Part shown: positions 17,975 through 38,820 of the stretch, piece after piece
Layout: the number at the start of each line of letters is the position of its first letter
How positions within the stretch are numbered: position 1 is the stretch's first letter
The notes under the pieces: generated by a model
What the model was told of the DNA's origin: nothing
Databases searched by the model: none
What the model saw: the letters and a program-made list of their open reading frames with translations, nothing else
Program-made: the position numbers and the translations under genes
Sequence record: PZ445435.1
Length of the DNA: 64,000 nt
Strand: one strand, 5' to 3'
Origin: a phage

Positions 17975-18002
17975 TTTATTCTCCTCGGTAGTTGATAGGG
18001 TA

Positions 18003-18032
18003 ATAGTATCACACTACTACCCTTCTGTAAAC
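18003..18032 (-). promoter_or_regulatory. T4-type early promoter with conserved leader cassette
   Basis: GTTTACA ... TGATACTAT then leader CCCTATCAACTACCGAGGAG, also seen near 38284 and 38791. Confidence 0.55.
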
Positions 18033-18418
18033 TACTTTTTGAAAGTTTTTCGCAAAAGTTCAATGATTTCATCTACATTGTTTTCGTCAACAATGCAGTG
18101 AATTTTTGTTACGCCAGAAACTATACCTTCATTAGCGGATTGAGGCTTTTCTAAAGTTACCTCAGTAAAGTATTTGAATTCTTCAGAGTAAATCTCAAAA
18201 TACGTCTCAAGTGGGCCACCCGCCATGTATTCAGTGCCATCTTCCATAGTTACACGTACCACACATTCACCAGCGCAATCATCACTTTCCATTTCATCTA
18301 CAACAAAACTAGGTCCGTGCTTCTCTATTAAATTTAGCATCATTACATTGCAACGGCACTCGTTAGCAAAGTCATTTTTAAATAAAGGGTTAATGATATA
18401 AGTTTTTCCAACTTCCAT
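18032..18418 (-). CDS. hypothetical protein (128 aa)
   Basis: ORF track. Confidence 0.45.
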   Translation of the reverse strand: MEVGKTYIINPLFKNDFANECRCNVMMLNLIEKHGPSFVVDEMESDDCAGECVVRVTMEDGTEYMAGGPLETYFEIYSEEFKYFTEVTLEKPQSANEGIVSGVTKIHCIVDENNVDEIIELLRKTFKK

Positions 18419-18464
18419 TTTGATTTCCTCAGTTTAACGGGGCTATCAAATAGCCCCTTGATAA

Positions 18465-18692
18465 TTATTGTTCAATCAGTCCCATGTAAAATTCTGCGTC
18501 TTCAGAATCCATACCATCACAATATTCATTAGCCATAAAGCGGGTGAGGTCTTCAAGAGGACCTTCAACAACAATTTGAATACTCCAAAATTTAGAATCT
18601 TGCACACTTGTGATACTAAGTTCAGGATAACGATTACGAATAATTTCTTCGATATATTCAAAATCAACGATGTCAATATCAACTTTAGCCAT
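18465..18692 (-). CDS. hypothetical acidic protein (75 aa, start at internal ATG with AAGAGGAAA SD)
   Basis: Upstream part of the track ORF overlaps a promoter, so internal start preferred. Confidence 0.45.
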
Positions 18693-18735
18693 ATTATTTT
18701 CCTCTTTAATCATCAGCAGTATTGCCGATAGTTGT

Positions 18736-18765
18736 ATAGTACCATGGAAGGACAAGGATGTAAAC
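18736..18765 (-). promoter_or_regulatory. T4-type early promoter (-35 GTTTACA, -10 TGGTACTAT)
   Basis: Motif and spacing; directly downstream of gene 32 terminator. Confidence 0.55.
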
Positions 18766-18789
18766 CATTTTGTGAAAAAATTTTTTGAA

Positions 18790-18816
18790 ATAAAAAAGGG
18801 GACCCTAGAGGTCCCC
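18790..18816 (-). terminator. rho-independent terminator downstream of gene 32
   Basis: GGGGACC-loop-GGTCCCC perfect stem followed by U6 on minus strand. Confidence 0.75.
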
Positions 18817-18838
18817 AATTAATTAGTAATATAATCTA

Positions 18839-19747
18839 TTAAAGGTCATTCAAAAGGTCATCCAGGTCCGTGTCATCAGCACTAGATGAACTGCCAGAGC
18901 TTGAGCTCATAAAATCATCTTCAGTTTTTGTTTTGAAGTCATCAACATTGAATGCATCCAAATCATCAGCAACTTTATCAGCTTTCTTAGCGGCAGTTGC
19001 TGCGGCACCACCCATAGCAGCAGTTCCCATAACTTGACTGAACTTAGTGCTCAGTTCTTCAAATGATTTGAATTTATCTTTAGAAGTCATTTCAGAAAGG
19101 TCAACCATTTGTTCGAACAGTTCTTTCTGGAAAGATTCATCGTCAATGTTTGGAATCGCAGATTGATTCAGGAATTTAGATTCATCGTAATTACTAAATC
19201 CAGAAACCTGTTTAACTTTCAGTACAAAGTTAGCACCTTCCCACGGACAAGTTACATCAACTGGAGTTTCACCCATTTCAACATCAACCGCAATCATTGC
19301 ATTGATTTTATCCCAGATTTTCTTACCGAAACGGTATTTAAATACTTTACCTTCGTTTTCTGGAGCAGCTGGGTCTTTTACTACAAGAATGTTAGCCCAG
19401 TAAGAAGTTTTACGTTTAACAAGACTGTACTCTTTATTGTCAGTGTTGTACAGATCATTTTTACTAATGTATTGACATACTGGGCAAGAATCGTAATCAC
19501 CGTGGGTAGATGAACAGTTTTCAATATACCATTTACCATTTTTCTTGAAACCGTGATTTACAAGAATTGCGAATGGTGCTTGTTCATCATTTTTAGACGG
19601 AAGAAAACGAATTACTGCTTGACCGTTACCCGCATTGTCGAGTTTCAGTTTCCACTCGCCTTTATCTTCAGAAGAAAAACCACCTTTATTTCCAGCCAGT
19701 TTAGCCATTTGTGCAGCGAGTTCAGCAGTAGATTTACGTTTAAACAT
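18839..19747 (-). CDS. 32: single-stranded DNA-binding protein gp32
   Basis: Matches recalled T4 gp32, acidic Ser/Asp-rich C-terminal tail. Confidence 0.95.
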
Positions 19748-19818
19748 TTTTATTTCCTTTTTAATTTAATTAACAGTTGGTGCTATGACGATGTATGACC
19801 TCATAGCTGGTCAGTGAG
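19748..19818 (-). promoter_or_regulatory. gene 32 translational operator (5' pseudoknot plus AU-rich leader)
   Basis: Leader reads ...GGUCAUACAUCGUCAUAGCACC...UUAAUUAAAUUAAAAAGGAAAUAAAAAUG as in T4. Confidence 0.7.
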
Positions 19819-19821
19819 ATA

Positions 19822-19846
19822 ATTATAATCTATTTATAATAAGCAA
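19822..19846 (-). promoter_or_regulatory. gene 32 promoter region: candidate MotA-box middle promoter (TTGCTTA ... TATAAT) overlapping a TATAAATA late promoter
   Basis: Minus strand reads AATTGCTTATTATAAATAGATTATAAT. Confidence 0.5.
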
Positions 19847-20500
19847 TTAATACTTACAAGATTTCACAGTTTCAATGAAAACACTTTTAGCTTTCTGTGA
19901 ATCAATATTTAAAATTTTTCTATAAGCCTTTAACTTTATAGAATAATTATTCCAGACTAAATTATCAGTCTGTTCATCATGTTTATCAATTATATTTAAA
20001 AATGAATCAAGCAAGATAAACGTCTCAAACGAAATTATGTTCGACTGAAGCAGTTTAAAAATATAACTTGATTGAACTTTTGGATTATATTCAAAAATTT
20101 CTTTAAAAGCAGAAACTTCAACTTTTTTACTAAAATAATAAATGTTGCGAATATCTTCTTCAAACTTAAATTTAATTTGCTTTAAGCGTCCGATATATTC
20201 ACGATAAAACACAAGTGCATCAGCGTCAGAGATGTCACCAATCCAAGCATCTTGGTTAGCAACCAAATTACTTATAAAGATTAAAGCAAGTTCCTTTAAT
20301 TTATATTTTTCTGATAACTTCTGGAAAAAATACTTATCCCTTCGCTTTTGATAAGCGGCATCAGACACCCGCATGCACCAATTATACTTAATAACATCAT
20401 ACTTTCCATTCATATGTTGTTTTATCATTAAGTATAATTTATAAACTGATTTACCATCAATGTATCTTTCACCACCAGCAGGCATGCGGAGTTTAATCAT
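19847..20500 (-). CDS. 59: helicase loader gp59
   Basis: 217 aa; matches recalled T4 gp59. Confidence 0.85.
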   Translation of the reverse strand: MIKLRMPAGGERYIDGKSVYKLYLMIKQHMNGKYDVIKYNWCMRVSDAAYQKRRDKYFFQKLSEKYKLKELALIFISNLVANQDAWIGDISDADALVFYREYIGRLKQIKFKFEEDIRNIYYFSKKVEVSAFKEIFEYNPKVQSSYIFKLLQSNIISFETFILLDSFLNIIDKHDEQTDNLVWNNYSIKLKAYRKILNIDSQKAKSVFIETVKSCKY

Positions 20501-20835
20501 AGTAGAAAATCTAATGTATTAGTTTTTTCACAACGAACAACAGAAGGACGTAAAAGATTTTCATCAATAGCTTCTGACTGAATTTTTTCAATTATACCCG
20601 AAGGAATAAATTTAGCAAATTGAGTTTCAGGAATAGAGTTTTCTTCCAAGAATGCTGTCGTAGCTTCAAGATAACTCATTCCAAACTCTTCTACCATTTT
20701 TTCAATAATAAATCCATTTTCTTGACGATCAAGAAGCTTTGCTATTTCATCCTTTTCTTTCTTAATTGAAAGTTCTTTTTCTGAAAGACCGGTCTCATCG
20801 ACCGGACGAATATCATTTAGAGAAAACTGTGTCAT
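20497..20835 (-). CDS. 33: late transcription co-activator gp33
   Basis: 112 aa from ATG 20835; matches recalled T4 gp33. Confidence 0.8.
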   Translation of the reverse strand: MTQFSLNDIRPVDETGLSEKELSIKKEKDEIAKLLDRQENGFIIEKMVEEFGMSYLEATTAFLEENSIPETQFAKFIPSGIIEKIQSEAIDENLLRPSVVRCEKTNTLDFLL

Positions 20836-21082
20836 AAAGTTCAACTACCTCTTCAGTTTCAGCTTCAAACACATCACGGTTATCTTTATGATACAAAGCT
20901 AATAGACGATTAAACATCTTACCATCAACACCAAGTTCATCTTTGGCACGAATTCGAATATCTTTAATCAGTTCATTATAACCGGAAATTTTCAGTTTAT
21001 GGTCAGATGCTTCTTTAATAAATTTAGCCAAGTCTTCGCCATGGATAGCTTCATCAAATTCAACCATTTCTTTTTTAGCCAT
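20813..21082 (-). CDS. dsbA: dsDNA-binding protein DsbA (late transcription enhancer)
   Basis: 89 aa; position between 33 and rnh. Confidence 0.7.
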   Translation of the reverse strand: MAKKEMVEFDEAIHGEDLAKFIKEASDHKLKISGYNELIKDIRIRAKDELGVDGKMFNRLLALYHKDNRDVFEAETEEVVELYDTVFSK

Positions 21083-21090
21083 TATTCACC

Positions 21091-22008
21091 TCAAAATTCA
21101 TTAATGCTATTAGTTAATTTAGAAAGACCCGCTTTTACAAAATATGAATAAATTTTGCCACGCGGTGGTAATTTATATGAATTATAGTAATTCACAATGT
21201 TTGAAGCAATATTATCAGGAATATAATCAAAATCAATTAGAACTAAATTTTCTTTATAACGATTATATTCAGATTCAGTGAGAAGCACCTTAGCTTGCTC
21301 ACGGTCATTAGCAATAGCTTCAACAATAGAGGTTTTCATTGAAGGAGTTCGTTCACCTTCAACTCTGGTAAACCAAAAGTCAGATCGTACTTTAACTGAA
21401 GCAACGTTGTCCTTTTTGTCGCCTTTAAGGATTTTAGTCATGCAATCAATTTCAGCAGAACCGCTTTTAATTTTAACCCATTTCTTATGCATCGGTGACC
21501 ATTGCTTAACATTTGGATATTTGTGAAGCTGTGTAAAGTCACCATCCGATGAAATGATTAAAATCTTGTGTCCTTCTAAAGAGAACTTTTTAACAAGAAC
21601 AGCAATGTGGTCATCCGCTTCATACTTATCAATATCCATAACAATGTATGGCATATAAGCTTTCAATTCATCTATAACTTTATGGCTGGATTCAAAATAA
21701 CCTTCCCAGTCCCAAGTAGATTCTTCTCGTGCTTTTCCACGGTTTTTCTTATAATAATAAGCGAAATCACGACGCCAGTATCCAGATTTCGCGTTATCAA
21801 TACACAGTACAATTTTAGTGTATCCAAGCGTTTTTGCTTTTTTGACATTAAACTTAATTGAGTTCAATATCAAATGACGAACCATTGATAAATTAATTTT
21901 TTCTTTATCTGGGAAGTTTACTAAAGCAGTTGAAAGCGCAATTTGACTAAAGTCAATAAAGCAAATTCCTTCTTTGTAATCTTCATCCAACATCATTTCT
22001 AAATCCAT
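21091..22008 (-). CDS. rnh: RNase H (5'-3' exonuclease, FEN-1 family)
   Basis: 305 aa from ATG 22008 (track start is TTG); matches recalled T4 RNase H. Confidence 0.9.
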   Translation of the reverse strand: MDLEMMLDEDYKEGICFIDFSQIALSTALVNFPDKEKINLSMVRHLILNSIKFNVKKAKTLGYTKIVLCIDNAKSGYWRRDFAYYYKKNRGKAREESTWDWEGYFESSHKVIDELKAYMPYIVMDIDKYEADDHIAVLVKKFSLEGHKILIISSDGDFTQLHKYPNVKQWSPMHKKWVKIKSGSAEIDCMTKILKGDKKDNVASVKVRSDFWFTRVEGERTPSMKTSIVEAIANDREQAKVLLTESEYNRYKENLVLIDFDYIPDNIASNIVNYYNSYKLPPRGKIYSYFVKAGLSKLTNSINEF

Positions 22009-22070
22009 ATGAACCTCGTTCAATTAGTGAGATTTCTATTATATACCATCCAAATCTTAAAGTAAACAAG

Positions 22071-22078
22071 TATAAATA
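22071..22078 (+). promoter_or_regulatory. late promoter TATAAATA for gene 34
   Basis: Exact consensus about 35 nt upstream of gene 34 ATG. Confidence 0.7.
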
Positions 22079-22112
22079 CTTATTATTGAAAACACAATAG
22101 GAGCCCGGGAGA

Positions 22113-25100
22113 ATGGCCGAGATTAAAAGAAAGTTCAGAGCAGAAGACGGTCTGGACGCAGGTGGCGATAAAATAATCAACGTAGCTTTAGCTGATCGTA
22201 CCGTAGGAACTGACGGTGTTAACGTTGATTACTTAATTCAAGAAAACACAGTTCAACAATATGATCCAACTCGTGGATATTTAAAAGATTTTGTAATCAT
22301 TTATGATAACCGCTTTTGGGCTGCTATAAATGATATTCCAAAACCGGCAGGAGCTTTTAATAGCGGGCGCTGGAGAGCATTACGTACAGACGCAAACTGG
22401 ATTACGGTTTCATCTGGTTCATATCAATTAAAATCCGGTGAAGCTATTTCGGTTAATACTGCAACTGGAAATGACATCACGTTTACTTTACCATCTTCTC
22501 CAATTGATGGAGATACTATCGTTCTCCAAGATATTGGAGGAAAACCTGGAGTTAACCAAGTTTTAATTGTAGCTCCAGTGCAAAGTATTGTAAACTTTAG
22601 AGGTGAACAGGTACGTTCAGTACTAATGACTCATCCAAAGTCACAGCTAGTTTTAATTTTTAGTAATCGTCTGTGGCAAATGTATGTAGCTGATTATAGT
22701 AGAGAAGCTGTAGTTGTAACACCAGCGAATACTTATCAAGCGCAATCTAATGATTTTATCGTGCGTAGATTTACTTCTGCTGCACCAATTAATGTCAAAC
22801 TTCCAAGATTTGCTAATCATGGCGATATTATTAATTTCGTTGATTTAGATAAACTGAATCCACTTTATCATACAATTGTTACTACATACGATGAAACGAC
22901 TTCAGTACAAGAAGTTGGAACTCATTCCATTGAAGGCCGTACATCGATTGACGGTTTCTTGATGTTTGATGATAATGAGAAATTGTGGAGATTGTTTGAC
23001 GGGGATAGTAAAGCACGTTTACGCATTATAACGACTAATTCTAATATTCGTCCAAACGAAGAAGTTATGGTATTTGGTGCGAATAACGGAACAACCCAAA
23101 CAATTGAGCTTCAGCTTCCTACTGATATTTCTGTTGGTGATACTGTTAAAATTTCCATGAATTACATGAGAAAAGGACAAACAGTTAAAATCAAAGCTGC
23201 CGGTGAAGATAAAATTGCTTCTTCAGTTCAATTGCTGCAATTCCCAAAACGCTCAGAATATCCGCCTGAAGCTGAATGGGTTACAGTCCAAGAATTAGTT
23301 TTTAATGGTGAAACTAATTATGTTCCAGTTTTACAGCTCGCTTATATTGAAGATTCTGATGGAAAATACTGGGTTGTACAGCAAAATGTTCCAACTGTAG
23401 AAAGAGTAGATTCTTTAAATGATTCTACTAGAGCAAGATTAGGCGTAATTGCTTTAGCTACACAAGCTCAAGCTAATGTCGATTTAGAAAATTCTCCACA
23501 AAAAGAATTAGCAATTACTCCAGAAACGTTAGCTAATCGTACTGCTACAGAAACTCGCAGAGGTATTGCAAGAATAGCAACTACCGCTCAAGTAAATCAG
23601 AACACCACATTCTCTTTTGCAGATGACCTTATCATTACTCCTAAAAAGCTGAATGAAAGAACTGCTACAGAAACTCGTAGAGGTGTTGCTGAAATTGCTA
23701 CGCAGCAAGAAACTAATACAGGTACTGATGATACTACAATCATCACTCCTAAAAAGCTTCAAGCTCGCCAAGGTTCTGAATCATTATCTGGTATTGTAAC
23801 TTTTGTATCTACTGCAGGTGCTACTCCAGCTTCTAGTCGTGAATTAAATGGTACGAATGTTTATAATAAAAACACTAATAATTTAGTTGTTTCACCTAAA
23901 GCTTTGGATCAGTATAAAGCTACTCCAACACAGCAAGGTGCAGTAATTTTAGCAGTTGAAAGTGAAGTAATTGCTGGACAAAGTCAGGAAGGATGGGCAA
24001 ATGCTGTTGTAACGCCAGAAACGTTACATAAAAAGACATCAACTGATGGAAGAATTGGTTTAATTGAAATTGCTACACAAAGTGAAGTTAATACAGGAAC
24101 TGATTATACTCGTGCAGTCACTCCTAAAACTTTAAATGACCGTAGAGCAACTGAAAGTTTAAGTGGTATAGCTGAAATTGCTACACAAGTTGAATTCGAC
24201 GCAGGCGTCGACGATACTCGTATCTCTACACCATTAAAAATTAAAACTAGATTTAATAGTACTGATCGTACTTCTGTTGTTGCTCTATCTGGATTAGTTG
24301 AATCAGGAACTCTCTGGGACCATTATACCCTTAATATTCTTGAAGCAAATGAGACACAGCGTGGTACACTTCGTGTAGCTACACAGGTTGAAGCTGCTGC
24401 AGGAACATTAGATAATGTTTTAATAACTCCTAAAAAGCTTTTAGGTACTAAATCTACCGAATCGCAAGAAGGTGTTATTAAAGTTGCAACTCAGTCTGAA
24501 ACTGTGACTGGAACATCAGCAAATACTGCTGTATCTCCAAAAAATTTAAAATGGATTGTGCAGAGTGAACCTACCTGGGCAGCTACTACTGCGATAAGAG
24601 GTTTTGTTAAAACTTCATCTGGTTCAATTACATTCGTTGGTAATGATACAGTCGGTTCTACCCAAGATTTAGAACTGTATGAGAAAAATAGCTATGCGGT
24701 ATCACCATATGAATTAAACCGTGTATTAGCAAATTATTTGCCGTTAAAAGCAAAAGCTGTAGATAGTAATTTATTGGATGGTCTAGATTCATCTCAGTTC
24801 ATTCGTAGGGACATTGCGCAGACAGTTAATGGTTCACTAACCTTAACCCAACAAACGAATCTGAGTGCCCCTCTTGTATCATCTAGTACTGCTGCGTTTG
24901 GTGGTTCAGTTTCGGCAAATAGTACATTAACTATTTCTAATACTGGAACGGCAACTCGTCTGATTTTTGAGAAAGGACCTCAAACTGGAACTAACCCAGC
25001 GCAGACGATGACTATCAGAGTTTGGGGAAATCAGTTTGGTGGTGGATCAGATACAACACGTTCTACTGTATTTGAAGTTGGTGATGAAACATCTAATCAC

Positions 25101-25982: not shown

Positions 25983-25990
25983 GAGGTATT

Positions 25991-27106
25991 ATGGAAAAAT
26001 TTATGGCAGAGTTTGGACAAGGATATGTCCAAACGCCATTTTTATCGGAAAGTAATTCAGTAAGATACAAAATAAGTATAGCGGGTTCTTGCCCGCTTTC
26101 TACAGCAGGACCATACGTTAAATTTCAGGATAATCCTGTAGGAAGTCAAACATTTAGCGCAGGTCTTCATTTAAGAGTTTTTGACCCTTCCACCGGAGCA
26201 TTAGTTGATAGTAAGTCATATGCTTTTTCGACTTCAAATGATACTACATCAGCTGCTTTTGTTAGTTTCATGAATTCTTTGACGAATAATCGAATTGTCG
26301 CTATATTAACTAGTGGAAAGGTTAATTTTCCTCCTGAAGTAGTATCTTGGTTAAGAACCGCCGGAACGTCTGCTTTTCCATCTGATTCTATATTGTCAAG
26401 ATTCGACGTATCATATGCTGCTTTTTATACTTCTTCTAAAAGAGCTATTGCATTAGAGCATGTTAAATTAAGTAATAGAAAAAGCACAGATGATTATCAA
26501 ACTATTTTAGATGTTGTATTTGACAGTTTAGAAGACGTCGGAGCTACCGGGTTTCCAAGAAGAACGTATGAAAGCGTTGAGCAATTCATGTCAGCGGTTG
26601 GTGGAACTAATAACGAAATTGCGCGTCTACCAACTTCAGCTACTATAAGTAAATTATCTGATTATAATTTAATTCCTGGCGATGTTCTTTATCTTAAAGC
26701 TCAGTTATATGCTGATGCCGATTTACTTGCTCTTGGAACTACAAATATATCTATCCGTTTTTATAATGCATCAAATGGATATATTTCCTCGACACAAGCT
26801 GAATTTACCGGACAAGCTGGGTCATGGGAATTAAAGGAAGATTATGTAGTTGTTCCAGAAAACGCTGTAGGATTTACGATATATGCACAAAGAACTGCTA
26901 AAGCTGGCCAAGGTGGCATGAGAAATTTAAGCTTTTCTGAAGTATCAAGAAACGGTGGTATTTCAAAACCTGCTGAATTTGGCGTCAACGGTATTCGTGT
27001 TAATTATATCTGTGAATCCGCTTCACCTCCGGATATAATGGTACTTCCTACGCAAGCATCATCTAAAACTGGTAAAGTGTTTGGGCAAGAATTTAGAGAA
27101 GTATAA
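25991..27106 (+). CDS. 35: long tail fibre hinge protein gp35
   Basis: 371 aa; matches recalled T4 gp35. Confidence 0.9.
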   Translation: MEKFMAEFGQGYVQTPFLSESNSVRYKISIAGSCPLSTAGPYVKFQDNPVGSQTFSAGLHLRVFDPSTGALVDSKSYAFSTSNDTTSAAFVSFMNSLTNNRIVAILTSGKVNFPPEVVSWLRTAGTSAFPSDSILSRFDVSYAAFYTSSKRAIALEHVKLSNRKSTDDYQTILDVVFDSLEDVGATGFPRRTYESVEQFMSAVGGTNNEIARLPTSATISKLSDYNLIPGDVLYLKAQLYADADLLALGTTNISIRFYNASNGYISSTQAEFTGQAGSWELKEDYVVVPENAVGFTIYAQRTAKAGQGGMRNLSFSEVSRNGGISKPAEFGVNGIRVNYICESASPPDIMVLPTQASSKTGKVFGQEFREV

Positions 27107-27108
27107 AT

Positions 27109-27137
27109 TGAGGGAGCCTTCGGGTTCCCTTTTTCTT
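27109..27137 (+). terminator. rho-independent terminator after gene 35
   Basis: AGGGAGCC-UUCG-GGUUCCCU hairpin followed by UUUUCUUU. Confidence 0.6.
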
Positions 27138-27145: not shown

Positions 27146-27168
27146 CTATTAAAATAAAGGGGCATACA

Positions 27169-27834: not shown

Positions 27835-27842
27835 GAGGACTT

Positions 27843-30800: not shown

Positions 30801-31118
30801 GACGGATATAATAGTGTAGGTGCAAACGCCAACGCTAAATTCACTGGAACCGTGAACGGTGCTACTGCAGGGTCGAATATAGCCAAAACTTCTTCAGACG
30901 GTGCTCATACTCATACTTGGTCTGGTACTACAAGCACTACAGGTAACCATGCTCACACAGTAGGTATTGGTGCTCATACCCATACTGTAGGTATCGGTGC
31001 TCATACCCACACGGTAGCAATTGGCTCGCATGGTCATACTATCACTGTAAATAGTACAGGTAATACAGAAAACACGGTTAAAAACATTGCTTTTAACTAT
31101 ATCGTTCGTTTAGCATAA
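27843..31118 (+). CDS. 37: long tail fibre distal subunit gp37 (receptor-binding tip with HxH needle)
   Basis: 1091 aa; N- and C-termini match T4 gp37, central region divergent. Confidence 0.95.
30609..30689 (+). repeat. 30-bp tandem repeat (about 2.7 copies) encoding GTKTTSSF(D/N)Y within gene 37
   Basis: Direct inspection of adjacent near-identical 30-mers. Confidence 0.7.
30954..31034 (+). repeat. 27-bp tandem repeat x3 encoding HTVGIGAHT His-box (metal-binding HxH) in gene 37
   Basis: Three consecutive 27-mers. Confidence 0.7.
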
Positions 31119-31122
31119 GGAG

Positions 31123-31138
31123 AGGGGCTTCGGCCCCT
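31123..31138 (+). promoter_or_regulatory. stem-loop (AGGGGC-UUCG-GCCCCU) sequestering the gene 38 RBS region
   Basis: Perfect stem between gene 37 stop and gene 38 ATG, no U-tract. Confidence 0.45.
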
Positions 31139-31145
31139 TCTAAAT

Positions 31146-31697
31146 ATGAAAATATATCATTATTATTTTGACACTAAAGAATTTTACAAAGAAGAAAATT
31201 ACAAACCGGTTAAAGGCCTCGGTCTTCCTGCTCATTCAACAATTAAAAAACCTTTAGAACCTAAAGAAGGATATGCAGTTGTATTTGATGAACGTACTCA
31301 GGATTGGATTTATGAAGAAGACCATCGCGGAAAACGAGCATGGACTTTTAATAAAGAAGAAATTTTTATAAGTGAAATTGGAAGCCCGGTTGGTATAACT
31401 TTTGATGAGCCTGGCGAATTTGATATATGGACTGATGACGGTTGGAAAGAAGACGAAACATATAAGCGAGTTTTAATTCGTAATAGAAAAATTGAAGAAT
31501 TATATAAAGAGTTCCAAGTTTTAAATAATATGATTGAAGCTTCTGTCGCCAATAAAAAGGAAAAATTTTATTATAAAAACCTTAAGCGGTTCTTTGCTCT
31601 TTTAGAAAAGCATGAGCATTTAGGTGGTGAATTCCCTTCATGGCCTGAAAAAGAACGGAAACCTTGGTATAAGCGTTTATTCAAGCATTACGTATAA
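31146..31697 (+). CDS. 38: tail fibre assembly chaperone gp38 (T4-type)
   Basis: 183 aa; matches recalled T4 gp38. Confidence 0.9.
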   Translation: MKIYHYYFDTKEFYKEENYKPVKGLGLPAHSTIKKPLEPKEGYAVVFDERTQDWIYEEDHRGKRAWTFNKEEIFISEIGSPVGITFDEPGEFDIWTDDGWKEDETYKRVLIRNRKIEELYKEFQVLNNMIEASVANKKEKFYYKNLKRFFALLEKHEHLGGEFPSWPEKERKPWYKRLFKHYV

Positions 31698-31700
31698 ATA
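31693..31700 (+). promoter_or_regulatory. late promoter TATAAATA for gene t
   Basis: Exact consensus overlapping gene 38 stop. Confidence 0.65.
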
Positions 31701-31717
31701 TCTTAAAAGGAGGGTCT

Positions 31718-32374
31718 ATGGCAGCACCTAGAATATCATTTTCGCCCTCTGATATTCTGTTTGGTGTTCTAGATCGCTTGTTCAAAGATAACGCTACTGG
31801 GAAGGTTCTTGCTTCCCGGGTAGCTGTCGTAATTCTTTTATTTATGATGGCGATTGTTTGGTATAGGGGAGATAGTTTCTTTGAGTACTATAAGCAATCA
31901 AAGTATGAAACATACCGTGAAATTGTTGAAAAGGAAAGAACTGCACGCTTTGAATCTGTCGCCCTGGAACAACTCCAGATAGTACATATATCATCTGAGG
32001 CAGACTTTAGTGCGGTGTATTCTTTCCGCCCTAAAAACTTAAACTATTTTGTTGATATTATAGCATACGAAGGAAGATTACCTTCAACAATAACTGAAAA
32101 ATCACTTGGAGGATATCCTGTTGATAAAACTATGGATGAATATATAGTTCATTTAAATGGACGTCATTATTATTCTGACTCAAAATTTGCTTTTTTACCA
32201 ACTAAAAAGCCTACTCCCGAAATAAACTACATGTATAGTTGTCCATATTTTAATTTGGATAATATCTATGCTGGAACAATAACAATGTACTGGTATAGAA
32301 ATGATCATATAAGTAATGACCGCCTTGAATCAATATGTGCTCAGGCGGCCAGAATATTAGGAAGGGCTAAATAA
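31718..32374 (+). CDS. t: holin T
   Basis: 218 aa, single N-terminal TM segment and large periplasmic domain. Confidence 0.9.
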   Translation: MAAPRISFSPSDILFGVLDRLFKDNATGKVLASRVAVVILLFMMAIVWYRGDSFFEYYKQSKYETYREIVEKERTARFESVALEQLQIVHISSEADFSAVYSFRPKNLNYFVDIIAYEGRLPSTITEKSLGGYPVDKTMDEYIVHLNGRHYYSDSKFAFLPTKKPTPEINYMYSCPYFNLDNIYAGTITMYWYRNDHISNDRLESICAQAARILGRAK

Positions 32375-32647
32375 TTATTTGTTCGTATACATCTCTAGAT
32401 ATCGATATACACCCTCAAAACCCTCGTTGAATTCGTCGATGAGGGTTTTCTTATCTTCTTGAGTTAATTCAGAAACAATTTTACGGAATGAATTCTGATT
32501 TAATTTTCTACCTTCATGCGTTACTCCAATCTCATTCAGAAATGCAATAAAATTAGCACGATTCTCAACAATATCTTCTCTGGAAAATTTAATCAAAATA
32601 GACGCAACAGTAATAATTTCACGAACTGTATCAATGTTTTTATTCAT
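32375..32647 (-). CDS. asiA: anti-sigma70 factor AsiA
   Basis: 90 aa; matches recalled T4 AsiA. Confidence 0.9.
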   Translation of the reverse strand: MNKNIDTVREIITVASILIKFSREDIVENRANFIAFLNEIGVTHEGRKLNQNSFRKIVSELTQEDKKTLIDEFNEGFEGVYRYLEMYTNK

Positions 32648-32659
32648 TAACTATACCAC

Positions 32660-32812
32660 TCAATTAGTTGACTTTGTTATAATATCATCAGACGCTTGAT
32701 TTGTAAACTGGTCTGTGTTATTTTCTTCAAAAATTTTTTCTACGAATTCCTTGAACGACTCGCGTTCCTGAGCTACATTATGCTCGATTACTTTTTCAAG
32801 ATTATGACTCAT
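32660..32812 (-). CDS. small acidic ORF (50 aa, not in supplied track)
   Basis: Own translation; ATGA overlap with upstream ORF stop. Confidence 0.3.
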   Translation of the reverse strand: MSHNLEKVIEHNVAQERESFKEFVEKIFEENNTDQFTNQASDDIITKSTN

Positions 32813-33087
32813 TCGAAATAATCTTCAATTTCATAATCATGGACGTAAATCATTATAGTTTTTAATACATCATCAATACTTTTTCCTGGAGCTGGAATTA
32901 CGTAGAAATATCCTGCTTTTGAGAGGTCTTTATAAGTTCCAATCAAGAAATCATTATTCTCAAGATGTAGTTCTTCAACTAATTCATTAACAATTGAATG
33001 GTATAGGTTTGGTAGAAACTTATATAGCTTTTCTAGAATATCAATTTTGATTGTGTATTGAACCACGGATTGAGAATCAATAATCAT
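32809..33087 (-). CDS. arn: probable Arn (anti-restriction, McrBC inhibitor)
   Basis: 92 aa acidic protein at the T4 arn position. Confidence 0.6.
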   Translation of the reverse strand: MIIDSQSVVQYTIKIDILEKLYKFLPNLYHSIVNELVEELHLENNDFLIGTYKDLSKAGYFYVIPAPGKSIDDVLKTIMIYVHDYEIEDYFE

Positions 33088-33170
33088 AGACCTTCCCCTT
33101 ATGTTTCTGTTTGCGATTAGATTCTTTAAACGCTTTCTTCTTATCCTTATGAACAGAAGCTTTATTAAAA

Positions 33171-33389
33171 TTATGTTTTGCGACTAAATTGTTCATAGTG
33201 CTGAATTACCTCTCTCAAACATTTGCATGTGAATGAAAACTTTTTAGCTACACCACATTCAAATATATGTTCTCTTAAATCGTGTGTATCCGTATATCCC
33301 ATCTCAACAATAAAATGCCGTATTAGATTTTTATCTTTATCATTGAGAGAATTAAAATAATCAGATTTTGAATTAATTTCCCTGGCCAA
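33171..33389 (-). CDS. hypothetical protein (72 aa, Cys-containing)
   Basis: ORF track. Confidence 0.4.
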   Translation of the reverse strand: MAREINSKSDYFNSLNDKDKNLIRHFIVEMGYTDTHDLREHIFECGVAKKFSFTCKCLREVIQHYEQFSRKT

Positions 33390-33669
33390 ATTGAATCACC
33401 TTCAGTTGACGTTTTAACTCTTTTATCATTTCTTCGTTCATCGCAATATAAAGATCACGTAAAGCAGGTTTTAGCATTCCATTTATTGGGGAACTAAATG
33501 GACATACATAATCTTTTCCTACGAGCTTTTTGGTGAATTCCATATTACAGAATTGAAATGCCGGTTCATTGGCATAAATTCCCCAATTAGTTGACATCAT
33601 TTTATTGGCATATTCCAGTGCCTTAATTTGATTCGTAATTCCGTCAATTTGAAACTTTTTAATATTCAT
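33373..33669 (-). CDS. hypothetical protein (98 aa)
   Basis: ORF track. Confidence 0.45.
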   Translation of the reverse strand: MNIKKFQIDGITNQIKALEYANKMMSTNWGIYANEPAFQFCNMEFTKKLVGKDYVCPFSSPINGMLKPALRDLYIAMNEEMIKELKRQLKVIQFGQGN

Positions 33670-34130
33670 TAGTAAAGGTCCTCAGAGTAAAGTTCTTTTT
33701 CACTACCACCGCGTTCAATACGTACTTGTCCAGCATAAGTTGCAATAATCATTGCTTCTTCACGTGTCCAATAATTACTATATTGGTCAATAAACCCTTG
33801 GTCATCATCACAAACTTGCTGAGTAACTAATTGAGGTTTAACTACATCTAAAACTTCTGCCATATCTTTAGAATAATGACGAGCACCTGGAATAACAAGA
33901 GTTCGTCCATCTTTTAATTTAAAACGGTTGGCTGCACAGACAATTCGTCGTTGATACTTTTGGTTTTCATCCCAGTACGCAGTCTGCCAACAGATTTCAG
34001 GAACTTCTTTCAGAATATCTTCTTCTGTGCATTTATAACCATGCGCTTTAAATTTTTCAACAAGACTTTCTGGAGTTTCACGAGATAAAGGAACATTCAG
34101 CATTTTTAAACGATTAATAAATGGGTTCAT
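33669..34130 (-). CDS. hypothetical protein (153 aa)
   Basis: ORF track. Confidence 0.45.
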
Positions 34131-34456
34131 TTAAACCATCCTTTAATACGTTGCCACAAAGTTTTCTGCTGAGCTTTGTTAACACCAATTGAACGAATAA
34201 CCGGTTGAGATTCCTGGAATTCTTTATAATCGGCAAGGTAAATTTCGTAAGCTGCATCCGCAAATGAACTTATCGCTGCCATAAAATTATTGCGAATACC
34301 TACTGGAGCATCTTTACTTTCACGAATAATCATGTATTTACCAGTCTTAATCTTTACAATAGTTCCAAGATAAGCTCCATGGTACCAAATATCCCAACCC
34401 TCTTGAGTAGGTTCTGCGCAACGACGAAGTTCATTAACAATTTCTAACTTGTTCAT
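34127..34456 (-). CDS. hypothetical protein (109 aa)
   Basis: ORF track. Confidence 0.45.
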
Positions 34457-34466
34457 TATTTATTCC

Positions 34467-35102
34467 TCACAGTTCAGATGCTACAGTGATTACTGCTTCA
34501 ATGTTTTCTGCCGAACGTCTAATGTCAAGATACACATTACCGTTTTTAGCGATTTTACATGACATTCCGATATCAGTAAATTTCTGAATATGATGTTCCA
34601 TCATTTTGTATCCAAAAATTCGCATATTTCCATTGTTGTTAATTTCAAAATTACGAATTCCGTGAGTGCGTTTTTCTAAAATGGCAAGATAATTACTACG
34701 ATAAGTTTCAACCTTTTTAAGAACAAATCCATTTTCATCTAAAAGTTTTAACATGAGGTCTTTATCTTCTTCCATATCGGAAGTAATCTCGCGAGCTTTA
34801 CGAGTTGCTCGTTTTTTCAGTAGTTCCGGAGCATTTTCCTGTGCATATAAAGTTGCTGCATTTGAAATAATATCCTGAGCTTCACCAGTAATGATTAATC
34901 CATCACCAGATTTCTCCACCAGGCCTTTTTTAATCAATACCCCAATATTACTATTAACTACTGCGTTACCTAAATCTGGATGCACCTCACGAACTTCTGC
35001 AGCTGTAATGAAATCTTTCTTAGCAATAGTAATTAAAATCGCAGCAGTTTTTTCATTCAGAACATCGTTAGAAGCTTTGATGATGTAAGTTACTTTAGAC
35101 AT
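34467..35102 (-). CDS. motA: middle transcription activator MotA
   Basis: 211 aa; matches recalled T4 MotA. Confidence 0.9.
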   Translation of the reverse strand: MSKVTYIIKASNDVLNEKTAAILITIAKKDFITAAEVREVHPDLGNAVVNSNIGVLIKKGLVEKSGDGLIITGEAQDIISNAATLYAQENAPELLKKRATRKAREITSDMEEDKDLMLKLLDENGFVLKKVETYRSNYLAILEKRTHGIRNFEINNNGNMRIFGYKMMEHHIQKFTDIGMSCKIAKNGNVYLDIRRSAENIEAVITVASEL

Positions 35103-35143
35103 TTTCTAATCTCCGTAATTCTGTATCAGTAGTTGATAGTTGT

Positions 35144-35173
35144 ATAGTACCACAGTATGCTTTGGTTGTAAAC
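35144..35173 (-). promoter_or_regulatory. T4-type early promoter upstream of motA
   Basis: GTTTACAACCAAAGCATACTGTGGTACTATACAACT on minus strand. Confidence 0.6.
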
Positions 35174-35195
35174 CGTTTTGTGAAAAAAATTTTGA

Positions 35196-35223
35196 AATAA
35201 AAAAGGAGAGCCGAGGCTCTCCC
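35196..35223 (-). terminator. rho-independent terminator downstream of the gene 52 unit
   Basis: GGAGAGCC-GAG-GGCTCTCC perfect stem followed by U6. Confidence 0.75.
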
Positions 35224-35228
35224 TAAAA

Positions 35229-35378
35229 TTACTGCATGACAGTTATCACAGTCATGATAACACGTTGAATTCCGAACGCAAGAAGACCTCCTGCTACGGC
35301 TGGAACAACGCCTAACCCTGCCAGTAAAACGCTACCAGATACTAATGCAGCGCTTGTAATACCAATGAATGGACTCAT
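35229..35378 (-). CDS. small hydrophobic membrane peptide (49 aa, not in track)
   Basis: Own translation; ATGA overlap with gene 52 stop. Confidence 0.35.
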   Translation of the reverse strand: MSPFIGITSAALVSGSVLLAGLGVVPAVAGGLLAFGIQRVIMTVITVMQ

Positions 35379-36703
35379 TTGATTTCCTCTAAATCTTTGG
35401 TGTATTCAGTAACTACATCAGTAGTTTTCCAATATTCGTTTTCTTCTTTTTTAGCTTTAGCTTCTTCAGCAAGTTTCTTTGCTTCGTCGGAAGTCATATG
35501 AAAAATATTCATACCAACTAGTTTATCAACATAAGAAGAATACATCTCAATTTTAGAAAGTTCTTCAGTCAGTTCTTTGCGAGTTTTACCCTGCACAACG
35601 ATTTCGCCTGAAATTACTTTCTTAATGAAATGTGCCTTGGCAAAGGCTAAACGAAAAGCTGATTCAGTTTCTTTGATTTTGTTATCAATTCGTTTTTGGA
35701 CATAAGTTTTACGAACTTCAACAAAGTCTTTAATTAAATCAACTACATTATCGTAAACTTGTAGCTTTCCTTTCTCATTAATAACGGTGATATTCTGGGA
35801 ACGACGCTCAATCAACCCAAAGTCTTTCATGATTTTTGCATGGCGTTCTTCTTCGTTATCGCTTAAGGAATATTCTTTACGGAATTTAACTTTGAAGCCA
35901 AAACCATGCTCACCGCAAGCATCATCCCACGTAATGAAGCCTTTATCTTCAAGCGGGTCTAAGATTTTACTCACATAAGTTTCACGATCATACTTATACG
36001 GAATCTCAGTGATATGCATTTGAGTTCGTGAAGTAAACTTGTATGTTCCACGAATTTCATATTGACCGTCAATTTCAACGACTTCACCGCGAAATTCTGG
36101 GAATTCTACCTTCGGTTTAGTTACTTTCTTTCCTTGAAGAGCTTGCAGTACAGCTTTCTTGACAGAAGAAACGCTATGAGGAAGAATGTAAGTTGCATAA
36201 CCAGTTGCAATACCGGAAACACCATTAAGAAGAACAGTAGGAATAATAGGCAAATAGAAAGCAGGCGGAATGTGTTCTTTATCTTGATGTACCGGAGCAT
36301 ATTCAGTATCTTTATATACATTATAGAAATTTTTACTTACACGAGCAAAAATATAACGACTTGCCGCTGCTTTTTGAACGGTACGAGAACCAAAGTTTCC
36401 TTGACCATCTAACAAAGGAAAGTTATTATTCCAAGTGTTAGCCATCAAAGCACCTGCGTCTTGCGCAGAGTTTTCACCATGATGATATCCAAGGTCTGCT
36501 ACACCGCCTGCAATAGAAGCGAGTTTGTGAAACTTATCTTTATTTCCTCGTGCCAAATCAAGAGCTCGAGCAATAACAAATCGTTGAACTGGCTTAAATC
36601 CATCAATCATATTTGGGATAGCACGATTTTCAACCGTGTACATAGCATAAGCCAATGCTTCATTATCAATGATACTTTTTAAATCGCGATTATTCAGTTG
36701 CAT
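35375..36703 (-). CDS. 52: DNA topoisomerase II medium subunit gp52
   Basis: 442 aa; GyrA-like N-terminal domain, size and synteny. Confidence 0.9.
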   Translation of the reverse strand: MQLNNRDLKSIIDNEALAYAMYTVENRAIPNMIDGFKPVQRFVIARALDLARGNKDKFHKLASIAGGVADLGYHHGENSAQDAGALMANTWNNNFPLLDGQGNFGSRTVQKAAASRYIFARVSKNFYNVYKDTEYAPVHQDKEHIPPAFYLPIIPTVLLNGVSGIATGYATYILPHSVSSVKKAVLQALQGKKVTKPKVEFPEFRGEVVEIDGQYEIRGTYKFTSRTQMHITEIPYKYDRETYVSKILDPLEDKGFITWDDACGEHGFGFKVKFRKEYSLSDNEEERHAKIMKDFGLIERRSQNITVINEKGKLQVYDNVVDLIKDFVEVRKTYVQKRIDNKIKETESAFRLAFAKAHFIKKVISGEIVVQGKTRKELTEELSKIEMYSSYVDKLVGMNIFHMTSDEAKKLAEEAKAKKEENEYWKTTDVVTEYTKDLEEIK

Positions 36704-36707
36704 AAAT

Positions 36708-36848
36708 TTACCATACTAGTGAATGTAGTGCCATAATAACATCAGAAATGAAAAGCACGACTTGAATTAATCCGAACATTATTCCGTAATATAATGCTAT
36801 CAATAAAATAGCAAGGGCTAATGAATAGCCCAAGATTTTCTTAATCAT
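36708..36848 (-). CDS. small membrane peptide (46 aa, not in track)
   Basis: Own translation; hydrophobic. Confidence 0.3.
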   Translation of the reverse strand: MIKKILGYSLALAILLIALYYGIMFGLIQVVLFISDVIMALHSLVW

Positions 36849-36999
36849 TAGTAGATAACAACACAAATGTTAAATATGCACACATACCCTGAGCTAAAGC
36901 TTGCGAAAACACACTGCTGGCATCAATACAGATAGTTAAAACACATGCTACTATCCAACAAATAAATGAAATAACTCCTAATAATTTTGCAATATTCAT
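36841..36999 (-). CDS. small membrane protein (52 aa), possible ac homologue
   Basis: Own translation; GAGGA SD; position downstream of stp as in T4. Confidence 0.35.
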   Translation of the reverse strand: MNIAKLLGVISFICWIVACVLTICIDASSVFSQALAQGMCAYLTFVLLSTND

Positions 37000-37006
37000 A
37001 TTTTCC

Positions 37007-37087
37007 TCACTGGTGTCCGAAGACGCCTTTGGTTTTAAGATTGTTACGATAGAACTGCATCACGTGTTCGTTGTGGAAATTACTCAT
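37007..37087 (-). CDS. stp: Stp peptide (26 aa, anti-restriction peptide that activates PrrC)
   Basis: Own translation [26 protein letters not shown], matches recalled T4 Stp. Confidence 0.7.
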
Positions 37088-37545
37088 TAATATGCCTGCA
37101 AAACAAATTTAAAGTTATCAGCCAACATACGGTTCATTTCTTCAAGTGTTTGATACTCAGAATGATGATTACGAGTAAACGCTAAAGCTAACTGTCCTTT
37201 TCCAAATCCCGTCGTCAGAGGTTTCATCTTAGAAGCAGGCAGATAAAATACTGTGTATACCATATTGTTATTTGCAATAGTACGTGCAAGCTGAGACCGA
37301 CGTTGACGAATATGACTTAGAACTGCACTGAATCCTTGCTTAGAACGCTGATTACCTACATAAAATCGTGCAGACACACATGGATTACTAAATGGACGAC
37401 CATCTAATTTACTTACTAAAAAGTAAAATCCAGGTTTAGATAAAATGTCTTTATGCGGAGTTCCCAAAAACCATTCACCGCCCTTGATTGTGCCAATAAC
37501 AGTAGCGCCTGCATTATTCAGATCAGTAACAGTCATGTATTTCAT
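37087..37545 (-). CDS. ndd: nucleoid disruption protein Ndd
   Basis: About 152 aa from internal [12 protein letters not shown]; matches recalled T4 Ndd. Confidence 0.8.
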
Positions 37546-37605
37546 ATTAATTTCCTCTAAATTATTTTCTACTCCAAGGCCGCATGAATACACGCGGCCA
37601 TTAAA

Positions 37606-37821
37606 TTAATCGTCGCAGTCGACGCTCAATTCCCAAAACTCTTCTACGGTATAAGTTTCAGTATCATTTTCAATACAGAAACGTTCATTACTGTTATTTG
37701 CTAAAGTAGCGTTAACTGTCATTTTCTCGCTGGTGCTCTTAAGAGGTGAAATACGAATTAACTGATCACCACTATCCAAGCAAAAAATTTCACCAACTTT
37801 TACATCTTTAAAGATTTTCAT
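37606..37821 (-). CDS. hypothetical protein (71 aa)
   Basis: ORF track. Confidence 0.4.
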   Translation of the reverse strand: MKIFKDVKVGEIFCLDSGDQLIRISPLKSTSEKMTVNATLANNSNERFCIENDTETYTVEEFWELSVDCDD

Positions 37822-37936
37822 AATTCACCTCAAGGAGTATAAAATCCAAATGCAGTTGTTGACCATCCCATCCAATATGGAAAATTTGCACCAATGTAAA
37901 ACATAAGAATATAAAACCAAATGTTTAGTAAATTCA

Positions 37937-38155
37937 TCATTTTACACCATTCCAAATTGTTTCAACTACGGATTTTAAACCATTCTGATGAATATCCATT
38001 CCGACTACCGCCATCAAATAGATTCCAACTACAACTGAACCTAAGGCAAAAATCAGCATGAAAATGAATAAAGCCGGAAAAATATTATCGAAAAACCATT
38101 CAATAAATGTAAAAGCACTGCGTTTACGCTTCATATTTTCCTCACATAAATCCAA
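37937..38155 (-). CDS. small membrane protein (72 aa)
   Basis: Two predicted TM helices. Confidence 0.4.
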   Translation of the reverse strand: MDLCEENMKRKRSAFTFIEWFFDNIFPALFIFMLIFALGSVVVGIYLMAVVGMDIHQNGLKSVVETIWNGVK

Positions 38156-38255
38156 AGTAAACGTTTAATACATCAATCATTAAAACGATTGGGAATATAC
38201 TCAAAACTACTAGTATTATAACTACATTCCATATAGCTTTAACAATCTTTTTCAT
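38142..38255 (-). CDS. small single-TM peptide (37 aa, internal start of track ORF)
   Basis: Start follows promoter and GGAGGA SD. Confidence 0.35.
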   Translation of the reverse strand: MKKIVKAIWNVVIILVVLSIFPIVLMIDVLNVYFGFM

Positions 38256-38283
38256 TTTCTGTTCCTCCGTAGTTGATAGGGTA

Positions 38284-38313
38284 ATAGTACCACGGAAGAA
38301 CAGTCTTGTAAAC
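38284..38313 (-). promoter_or_regulatory. T4-type early promoter with conserved leader cassette
   Basis: Near-identical to the 18003 and 38791 copies. Confidence 0.55.
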
Positions 38314-38498
38314 AACTTTTTTAAAAATATTCGTAATAAATGTGAATACCAACTACTACCGCTGAAACCTGTGCAACCCACCACGCACAAGCAATAAGTA
38401 CAGAATTCAAAATTTTCATAATAACCTCATCACAAAAGTAAATGTTAAACAAATTACTGGAATACTAATTAACCAAACAAAACACCACCATAATGAAC

Positions 38499-38762
38499 TC
38501 ATAGTTCAATCTCAGCGATTTTCATTTTATTACTATTAATAGCCTCTTTAAGACTATCTGAAAGAATTACATTCCAGTGGTCATTCATATGACCATTAAC
38601 TAAGCGTGTAATTTCTTCAGGAGTTGAAAAATAAGGCTGATCAGACTCCCAATGCGATAATCCTAAGCGAGTATAAATCATGCCTTCATCATCGCTAGAA
38701 TATTCAACTGACACAAACTCATCAGTTATTTTATGTTTAGCGTAATAAAATTTAAATTTCAT
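38499..38762 (-). CDS. hypothetical protein (87 aa)
   Basis: ORF track. Confidence 0.45.
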   Translation of the reverse strand: MKFKFYYAKHKITDEFVSVEYSSDDEGMIYTRLGLSHWESDQPYFSTPEEITRLVNGHMNDHWNVILSDSLKEAINSNKMKIAEIEL

Positions 38763-38790
38763 TTTCCGCTCCTCCGTAGTTGATAGGGTA

Positions 38791-38820
38791 ATAGTACCAC
38801 GGTCCTTGTGGTATGTAAAC
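38791..38820 (-). promoter_or_regulatory. T4-type early promoter with conserved leader cassette
   Basis: GTTTACA...TGGTACTAT then CCCTATCAACTACGGAGGAG. Confidence 0.55.

Follow-up and report, generated by a model that had tools for sequence, protein, structure and literature searches.

In silico analysis of a 64,000-nucleotide stretch of phage DNA (sequence record PZ445435.1), referred to below as the window, revealed 19 early-promoter sites, all of them on the minus strand. With a probability of about 0.9, these sites are sigma-70-dependent early promoters, each joined to the initiation leader of the first gene of a short early unit, and the resulting cassettes take part in shuffling of the type described for promoter-early stem-loops (PeSLs). 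By its sequence the phage is a Tequatrovirus, a T4-like coliphage, and the function of the sites is assigned from their sequence and from T4. The feature itself is already known: it corresponds to the T4 early promoters, which have been published also as PeSLs.

A scan of the window for GTTTAC-N15-19-TANNNT returned 21 matches, compared with 4.63 +/- 2.16 in shuffled sequences, and 0 of 100 shuffles reached 21; 19 of the matches lie on the minus strand. Eighteen are full sites, with a TGn element and an A/T-rich upstream (UP) region, and the set is completed by the site at 46780, which carries ATATAC in the -35 position. TAnnnT is present in all 19 sites and the -35 is exact in 18. The first-pass annotation had reported at least 15 minus-strand GTTTAC sites, and this is borne out, as are all of its individual coordinates, including the related copies at 35121..35173, 18721..18765 and 46726..46780, the last of which does lack GTTTAC. 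Its placing of the cassettes within 17985-38820 did not hold, as they are distributed over the whole window, from 2227 to 60006. The other pattern matches, at 22595 (minus), 23017 (plus) and 63705 (plus), lack TGn and UP and are likely chance occurrences. The first of these (22566-22595, minus strand, GTTTAC-N18-TACAAT) lies antisense within gene 34 and not near the position of T4 oriG; it is probably fortuitous.

Anchored on the -10, the 19 sites give a consensus consisting of an A/T-rich block, AAAgTT-GTTTACa, about 11 variable bases, tGTGg-TAyTAT and then A. The spacer is of the T4 type, with 17 nt in the TTTACA register, and the extended -10 element TGn is present. The UP segments have a pairwise identity of 0.412 against 0.305 when shuffled, with the consensus AAA.T. 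and upstream T/A runs. Each site is followed, at a distance of 22-45 nt, by the start of an early-gene open reading frame (ORF); by T4 homology, the genes behind the promoters are dmd, sp, mrh.2, modB, srd, motB.2, motB, an 89-aa ORF (ORF89), rIIA.1, an 87-aa ORF (ORF87), ndd.4, motA, asiA, rnh, frd.3, frd.1, alc, 30.8 and 30.7. In an unprompted repeat search of the window, the two largest families of direct repeats, D1 and D2, were the cassettes.

In five cassettes the motif TATCAAC stands in the same register, 5-11 nt past the -10 and near the expected start site (17991-17997, 35132-35138, 38272-38278, 38779-38785 and 46738-46744). Early promoters of Mosig-, Dhaka- and Karamvirus are also followed by TATCAAC or TATCAAA.

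The promoters and terminators of the window are listed below. Promoter entries run from the -35 (higher coordinate) through the ATG or the leader, and all are on the minus strand; z refers to the -35-to-ATG segment folded as RNA, and SD denotes the Shine-Dalgarno sequence.

59945..60006, minus: dmd early promoter to ATG; -35 G at 60006; a 15-pair hairpin spans the -10 (z -3.98)
59443..59503, minus: sp (spackle) early promoter to ATG; no hairpin
55395..55453, minus: mrh.2 early promoter to ATG; T4 orthologue
55467..55488, minus: terminator, hairpin and T-run; 9 pairs; downstream of soc, 14 nt before the -35 at 55453
53287..53345, minus: modB early promoter to ATG; the -10 TATGAT arm pairs with SD and AUG (z -4.93)
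51942..52009, minus: srd early promoter to ATG; T4 orthologue
48318..48377, minus: motB.2 early promoter to ATG; an anti-SD in the spacer pairs with GAGGA (z -5.49)
47293..47369, minus: motB early promoter to ATG; GGGACC/GGTCCC stem around the -10 (z -4.03)
46704..46780, minus: ORF89 cassette, ATATAC at the -35; inverted repeat around the -10 (z -5.01)
43026..43083, minus: rIIA.1 early promoter to ATG; 100% to T4
38760..38820, minus: ORF87 chimeric cassette; motA-type UP/-35 half and ndd.4-type -10/leader half
38253..38313, minus: ndd.4 early promoter to ATG; spacer CTGTTCTTCCGT pairs with SD ACGGAGGAACAG (z -4.92)
35100..35173, minus: motA early promoter and leader; -35 and -10 annotated in T4 record Z48569
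35203..35224, minus: terminator; 9 pairs; 30 nt upstream of the motA -35
32645..32708, minus: asiA early promoter; first minus-strand gene past the plus-strand late block; no hairpin
22006..22067, minus: rnh early promoter; divergent from gene 34; no significant hairpin
18690..18765, minus: frd.3 early promoter and leader; repeat family member, T4 orthologue
18798..18816, minus: terminator; 8 pairs, 6 GC; downstream of gene 32, 33 nt before the frd.3 -35
17972..18032, minus: frd.1 early promoter and leader; a GGGTAGTAGT/ACTATTACCC stem takes in the -10; leader end GGAGAATAAAATG (z -2.72)
8988..9048, minus: alc early promoter; long hairpin, spacer with SD (z -6.79)
2627..2686, minus: gene 30.8 early promoter; spacer CCTTTGTG pairs with CAAAGGAG (z -2.11)
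2715..2736, minus: terminator; 9 pairs; 29 nt upstream of the 30.8 -35
2227..2294, minus: gene 30.7 early promoter; GGTACAGG/CCTGTACC stem around the -10 (z -4.85)

The four terminators that had been named beside promoters are real. All rank among the top terminator-like sites of the minus strand, and 14-33 nt separate their stems from a downstream -35. Fusion to an upstream terminator thus concerns 4 of the 19 promoters.

All 19 sites have orthologues at the same T4 loci, with 88-100% identity over 40-91 aligned nt; the counterpart of the dmd promoter, for example, lies at T4 20642-20553 (97.8% identity). In the T4 record Z48569 the motA promoter is annotated with the same -35 and -10, and the relative fPS-65 carries the annotation "predicted early promoter" at the homologue of 38820. 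The T4 GenBank/RefSeq records contain no promoter features, with the exception of a RefSeq note naming the early promoter Pe133295. The original lists of T4 early promoters are reportedly those of Liebig & Rüger 1989, Wilkens & Rüger 1996 and Miller et al. 2003.

The T4 early promoters have been characterized as "uber" promoters, combining UP, -35, TGn and -10 elements with extra consensus regions (Hinton 2010, PMC2988021). Their activity requires no modification of the host polymerase, Alt stimulates some of them, and shut-off comes within minutes (PMC2988021). As in T4, the sites of the window are built from UP, GTTTAC(a), a 17-nt spacer, TGn and TAnnnT at the same loci, and the downstream genes in common comprise motA, asiA, alc, modB, srd, motB, dmd, sp, rnh and others. 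Nothing essential differs. Unlike in T4, the leaders or ORFs are different behind three promoters: ORF87 is present instead of ndd.6, the frd.1 mini-ORF is missing, and ORF89 is intact. By analogy with the T4 literature, unmodified host RNA polymerase would read UP, -35, TGn and -10 together, so that these promoters would outcompete host promoters right after infection; Alt ADP-ribosylation would boost some of them, and shut-off would follow after a few minutes.

The similarity between copies continues past the promoter. The extended leader identity claimed for three of the cassettes is genuine: those at 38820 and 38313 have 33 nt in common (CCGTGGTACTATTACCCTATCAACTACGGAGGA), and each shares 21 nt with the cassette at 18032. 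Over the 24 nt after the -10, the mean pairwise identity of all 19 cassettes is 0.359, compared with 0.277 +/- 0.007 for shuffled controls, and four leader pairs are at least 70% identical where none is expected. The cassette at 38820 has 22 nt (UP/-35) in common with the motA cassette and the 33 nt (-10/leader) in common with the ndd.4 cassette at 38313, located 507 bp downstream; it is therefore a chimera, of motA type in its 5' half and of ndd.4 type in its 3' half. The 33-nt run covers spacer and leader positions that are freely variable in the other 17 promoters. The long leader identity of the three cassettes would be the product of recent exchange and not a separate functional element, and the 38313/38820 pair, 507 bp apart, would be an obvious candidate for the predicted excision of a mini-circle.

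The genes flanked by the cassettes are not invariant: comparison with relatives revealed that they vary, with junctions within the cassettes. At the denB-ndd.6 locus four alleles exist, namely no insert (T4), ORF87, ORF68, and ORF68 with ORF87. Both ORFs are carried by ime09, ORF68 only by T2 and RB7, and ORF87 only by the window and most relatives; the allele junctions lie in (A)AAATGAAA-type microhomology of the SD-ATG leader. T4 keeps an 8-codon in-frame remnant of the ORF87 C-terminus, MKIAEIEL, overlapping the ndd.6 start (T4 ~167017-167041, NC_000866). A motA-type leader follows the promoter homologous to 38820 in fPS-65, T2 and ime09, and in fPS-65 it stands directly before ORF87, so that ORF87 has a motA-type leader in fPS-65 and an ndd.4-type leader in the window. 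The ORF87 junction of the window is matched at >=99% by only 27 of 478 records and is a minority allele. For several further records, the part of the query that covers the leader found its match about 500 nt apart from the rest, and we infer that these displaced matches mark the ndd.4 cassette of those records.

Indel or replacement junctions between close relatives were found at the ORF87/ndd.6, frd.1 and motB cassettes. In T4, a hydrophobic mini-ORF of 22 codons, MFAPYIMAAVMLVCLYLLIKAC (~146016-146084, minus strand, NC_000866), separates frd.1 from its promoter; it is unannotated in the T4 records examined and absent from the window. The frd.1 cassette of Ozark includes one more ORF, of 86 aa, and a second promoter; the insertion lies immediately before the -35. 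At motB, the sequences of the window and Ozark part from those of T4 and PST exactly at the -35. The difference from T4 between cef and motB (46498-46697) was considered as cassette-linked and rejected; it is instead an in-frame internal deletion of ORF89 in T4, with AAAATT microhomology, and T4 retains a collapsed in-frame ORF89 remnant between motB and cef, ORF89 being intact in the window. Upstream of cef in IME08 (Dhakavirus), at a non-orthologous locus, GGGTAGTGATATTATTACCCTATCAAC is close to the core of the window's frd.1 cassette.

In mechanistic terms, T4 short-homology recombination may take the cassettes and the common SD-ATG microhomology as crossover points, because modules of 60-100 bp recur in direct orientation between small non-essential genes. 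Such crossovers would swap, delete or insert ORFs already equipped with a promoter. The interpretation of the copies as mobile regulatory cassettes, proposed before any comparison with relatives, is supported: neither of the two outcomes named in advance as refuting it, copies no more alike than shuffled controls and invariant flanking genes, was observed. The copies are promoters fused to leaders, and in four cases to a terminator as well, and the cassette idea matches the published PeSL model.

PeSLs were described in RB49/phi1, where mini-circles were detected experimentally (Arbiol 2010, PMC2839356), and subsequently in PST/T4 and nt-1/KVP40, with the PST/T4 consensus TTTACW-N17-TAYWAT (Comeau 2014, PMC4122927). 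The exchange of ndd.4/.5 is a worked PST/T4 example (Fig. 6A of PMC4122927). Like PeSLs, the cassettes of the window consist of an AT-rich region, an early promoter, a stem-loop, an SD and an ATG, and stand in plastic regions beside indels; the published PST/T4 consensus fits the window sites. The AT-rich upstream region, the promoter and the SD/start codon at the 3' end are found in the cassettes, and stem-loops are represented by the four upstream terminators and ten hairpins overlapping the -10. As the site at 2686 has both, 13 of 19 cassettes carry a stem-loop, and six have none or only a weak spacer hairpin. The PST/T4 stem-loops are placed just upstream of the promoter, whereas in the window only 4 of 19 cassettes have an upstream terminator; the -10-overlapping stem-loops of the other type (10 of 19) show the arrangement described for RB49/phi1 (PMC2839356). 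The window therefore confirms textbook T4 biology in another Tequatrovirus and supplies clean local examples of PeSL shuffling, the chimeric cassette and the four-allele locus.

The hairpins deserve separate description. The z values of the 19 folded segments are bimodal. Ten are at -2.1 or lower (dmd -4.0, modB -4.9, motB.2 -5.5, motB -4.0, ORF89 -5.0, ndd.4 -4.9, frd.1 -2.7, alc -6.8, 30.8 -2.1 and 30.7 -4.9), eight of these at about -4 or lower, and the remaining nine range from -1.6 to +1.1, with seven at or above zero. The strong hairpins span the -10, which lies either within a stem arm or in the loop. In the ORF89 cassette (46725-46798) a perfect 13-bp inverted repeat, ATCAGTAGTTGAT / ATCAACTACTGAT, surrounds the -10, with the common leader motif as its 3' arm; this cassette, with its ATATAC, is identical in T4 and Ozark. 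Neither of the promoters without a same-strand gene upstream (asiA and rnh) has a hairpin, and of the four that follow an intrinsic terminator, three lack one. As far as the folded sequences show, a T-run follows only the four upstream hairpins and none of those overlapping the -10, so the latter do not look like intrinsic terminators.

In alc, modB, motB.2, ndd.4 and 30.8 the 5' arm, formed by the spacer or the -10 and thus upstream of the expected start, pairs with the SD/AUG. Opening of the start region of these five genes requires 11.6-19.5 kcal/mol in read-through RNA compared with 0.1-3.8 kcal/mol in RNA from the gene's own promoter (modB 18.0 vs 1.9, motB.2 13.6 vs 2.3, ndd.4 19.5 vs 0.7, alc 19.0 vs 3.8, 30.8 11.6 vs 0.1). 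Sequestration this strong affects 5 of 19 promoter-proximal genes; among the 49 other minus-strand genes that have a good SD there is no case (Fisher p = 0.001). Taken over all 19 sites the effect is weak (combined z ~2, Mann-Whitney p = 0.28), with five strong cases and none among the rest.

Three of these genes, alc, the mod gene and motB.2, were compared with their counterparts in other genera of the Tevenvirinae, and in all three the SD pairing is conserved, with compensatory changes. The mod-gene hairpin pairs the TATGAT -10 with ..ATCATG. Five genera (Tequatro-, Mosig-, Dhaka-, Karam- and Gelderlandvirus) and an unclassified Klebsiella phage have it, and its alignment contains 14 consensus pairs, three of them compensatory. 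The alc start is sequestered in five of six lineages, with compensation of CCGTTTGG/CCAAACGG by CCATTTGG/CCAAATGG, and in motB.2 the CTCCTC anti-SD is kept in three different stems. RNAalifold returned no structure for the motB.2 orthologues because MAFFT misaligned the shifted stems, which are seen when each sequence is folded by itself. An IMG/VR search with Alc for covariation yielded only six near-identical loci and was uninformative; the phage collection was used in its place. On a tentative reading, about half of the early promoters of T-even phages would lie within conserved RNA hairpins, with the untranscribed spacer or -10 as the 5' arm.

Inhibitory start-region hairpins with an embedded promoter are known from T4 e, soc, 49 and I-TevI (PMC3014915). 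As in those genes, the SD/AUG pairs with an upstream arm that is missing from transcripts of the proximal promoter; in T4 these transcripts alone are translated (PMC3014915), which for the window is a prediction. The internal promoter of e, soc, 49 and I-TevI is late and the silenced RNAs are early/middle read-through products, whereas in the window the internal promoter is early, and the same hairpin logic would limit translation to the first minutes of infection. Stem-loops overlapping the -10 were already seen in RB49 and taken as attenuators (Arbiol 2010, PMC2839356). The PeSL authors regarded stem-loops as terminators or attenuators, and SD sequestration is not discussed there. It is proposed only tentatively, and is rather doubtful, that the anti-SD hairpins of at least alc, modB/modA, motB.2, ndd.4 and 30.8 both function in silencing read-through RNA and have not been described before. 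Translation would then be possible only for RNAs begun at the early promoter of the gene itself, and read-through from the upstream unit would be silent. This would be the early-gene mirror image of the late-promoter hairpins of e, soc, 49 and I-TevI, and the synthesis of toxic takeover proteins would be confined to the first minutes of infection and tied to promoter choice. Each cassette would be insulated translationally as well as transcriptionally, and a functional hairpin would also explain why promoter and leader travel as a unit. The anti-SD hairpins are the only part of the system that could add knowledge, provided that they are functional and not yet described.

Some leaders also contain putative processing sites. 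The strong-site consensus for RegB/S1 is GG*AGRAYARAA, as quoted from Durand et al. 2006 in PMC3014915. GGAGRAYARAA occurs four times in the window against 0.32 expected, each time in a cassette leader (30.7, 30.8, frd.1 and ORF89); these four leaders end in GGAGAATAAAA, a perfect match to the consensus and a predicted cleavage site. GGAG forms part of the SD in 11 of 19 leaders, as read from the sequences. As extrapolated from the T4 literature, leaders ending in GGAG(AATAAAA) would be cut by RegB/S1 and the early mRNAs thereby inactivated, and GGAG within the sequestering hairpins would be protected in read-through RNA.

Several results weigh against the interpretation of the sites as shuffled early-promoter cassettes. 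A generic sigma-70 scan was unenriched, with 82 matches vs 76.7, 79 vs 73.2 and 92 vs 90.0 in shuffled sequences, which makes the signal specific to the T4-type extended pattern. There are about 18 large differences between the window and T4, and only two or three touch a cassette. Most are insertions of segG, segF, mobA/60, mobE, dam, I-TevI and I-TevIII or tail-fibre divergence, and others are microhomology deletions inside ORFs and away from promoters, such as the one that left the ORF89 remnant; the cassettes therefore account for only a minority of the plasticity. Junctions often fall within 8-13 nt of SD-ATG microhomology and not in the promoter proper, so that what is termed cassette-mediated may in part be ordinary illegitimate recombination that is viable in intergenic DNA.

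Four other explanations of the similarity were considered. That the matches are chance products of an AT-rich genome might seem compatible with the shuffle-level count of generic sigma-70 hexamers and with the two or three of 21 pattern matches that look random, but this explanation is already refuted by the excess of the extended pattern (21 against 4.6, reached in 0 of 100 shuffles), by the fact that 19 of the 21 share the coding strand of the early genes and keep a fixed distance to the start codon that follows, and by the conservation of the sites in T4. Pure convergence, in which each copy is held independently to a strong promoter and ribosome-binding consensus with no exchange, is very unlikely. 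It would account for the concentration of information in the UP, -35, TGn and -10 positions, and the presence of TATCAAC at a fixed register in other genera suggests a functional start-site motif. It does not account for the 33-nt identity of 38313 and 38820 over positions free to vary in the other 17 promoters, for the two parents of the 38820 chimera, or for an ORF87 with a different leader in fPS-65, the window version being a minority allele; on these sequences, the allele comparison largely refutes it.

Slightly less credible still is a dedicated site-specific system, integron-like or similar to a miniature inverted-repeat transposable element, in which the repeats would be recombination sites and not stretches of passive homology. 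The RB49 PeSL mini-circles and the stem-loop-binding protein speculated upon by Arbiol 2010 (PMC2839356) point in this direction, as do the hairpins overlapping half of the window promoters. However, the junctions vary (before the -35, at the -35, between -10 and SD, between SD and ATG) and have no fixed core, the hairpin sequences all differ, no recombinase is associated, and homology shorter than 50 bp is sufficient for recombination in T4 (cited in PMC2839356). More weight, although still little, is given to the view that similarity past the -35 is selected mainly for RNA hairpins controlling the translation or processing of read-through RNA, with the promoter secondary. The ten promoter-to-ATG segments with z of -2.1 or lower, the 5 of 19 promoter-proximal starts needing 11-20 kcal/mol to open (0 of 49 other genes) and the compensatory changes across genera speak for hairpin selection. 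The hairpin arms, however, differ from one site to the next and cannot explain the likeness of the copies; the common leader of the three related cassettes sequesters the SD only at 38313 and not at 38820, where the spacer is different; 9 of 19 promoters have no hairpin; and similarity exists also between the hairpin-free 35173 cassette and the upstream half of 38820. The preferred reading remains that of early promoters with attached leaders, shuffled in the manner of PeSLs.

With regard to genomic context, the region 17000-39000 has hundreds of Tequatrovirus matches, the best of about 98% being vB-Eco-KMB22 and Ozark (among the matches listed), and 47250-53420 is 100% identical to phage PaulHMueller. 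Within 17000-39000, the minus-strand genes frd-32-59-33-rnh are followed by the plus-strand tail-fibre genes 34-38 and t, and then by the minus-strand genes asiA-motA-52-ndd-denB-rIIB; the window crosses the conventional T4 origin and continues through rIIA-39-motB-dda-modA/B-soc-61-41-uvsX. At 43418-43483, compared with T4 2793-3911, the gene for the topoisomerase large subunit is unsplit, and the T4 gene 60/mobA insertion with its 50-nt translational bypass is absent. For annotation, the analysis adds 19 early promoters, four terminators and several tiny ORFs or ORF remnants overlooked by gene callers.

Further repeats were noted in the window. In gene 37 (30948-31028, plus strand) three tandem 27-nt in-frame repeats encode H-x-H-T-V-G/A-I-G-A/S; these presumably resemble the His-x-His metal-binding repeats of the gp37 tip. 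The denB.1 gene is flanked by two copies of a terminator hairpin (AAGGGCTTCGGCCCTT and T-run; 39426-39466 and 39658-39698; 78% identity), one after rIIB and the other after denB.1. A 49-nt direct repeat with 94% identity, at 58150-58198 and 58508-58556, comprises a gene end and GAGGTTAATATG (SD, ATG) and encloses about 358 bp missing from the 61.1/61.2 region of T4; from its sequence, it looks like an ORF insertion or duplication through start-region homology, with no promoter involved.

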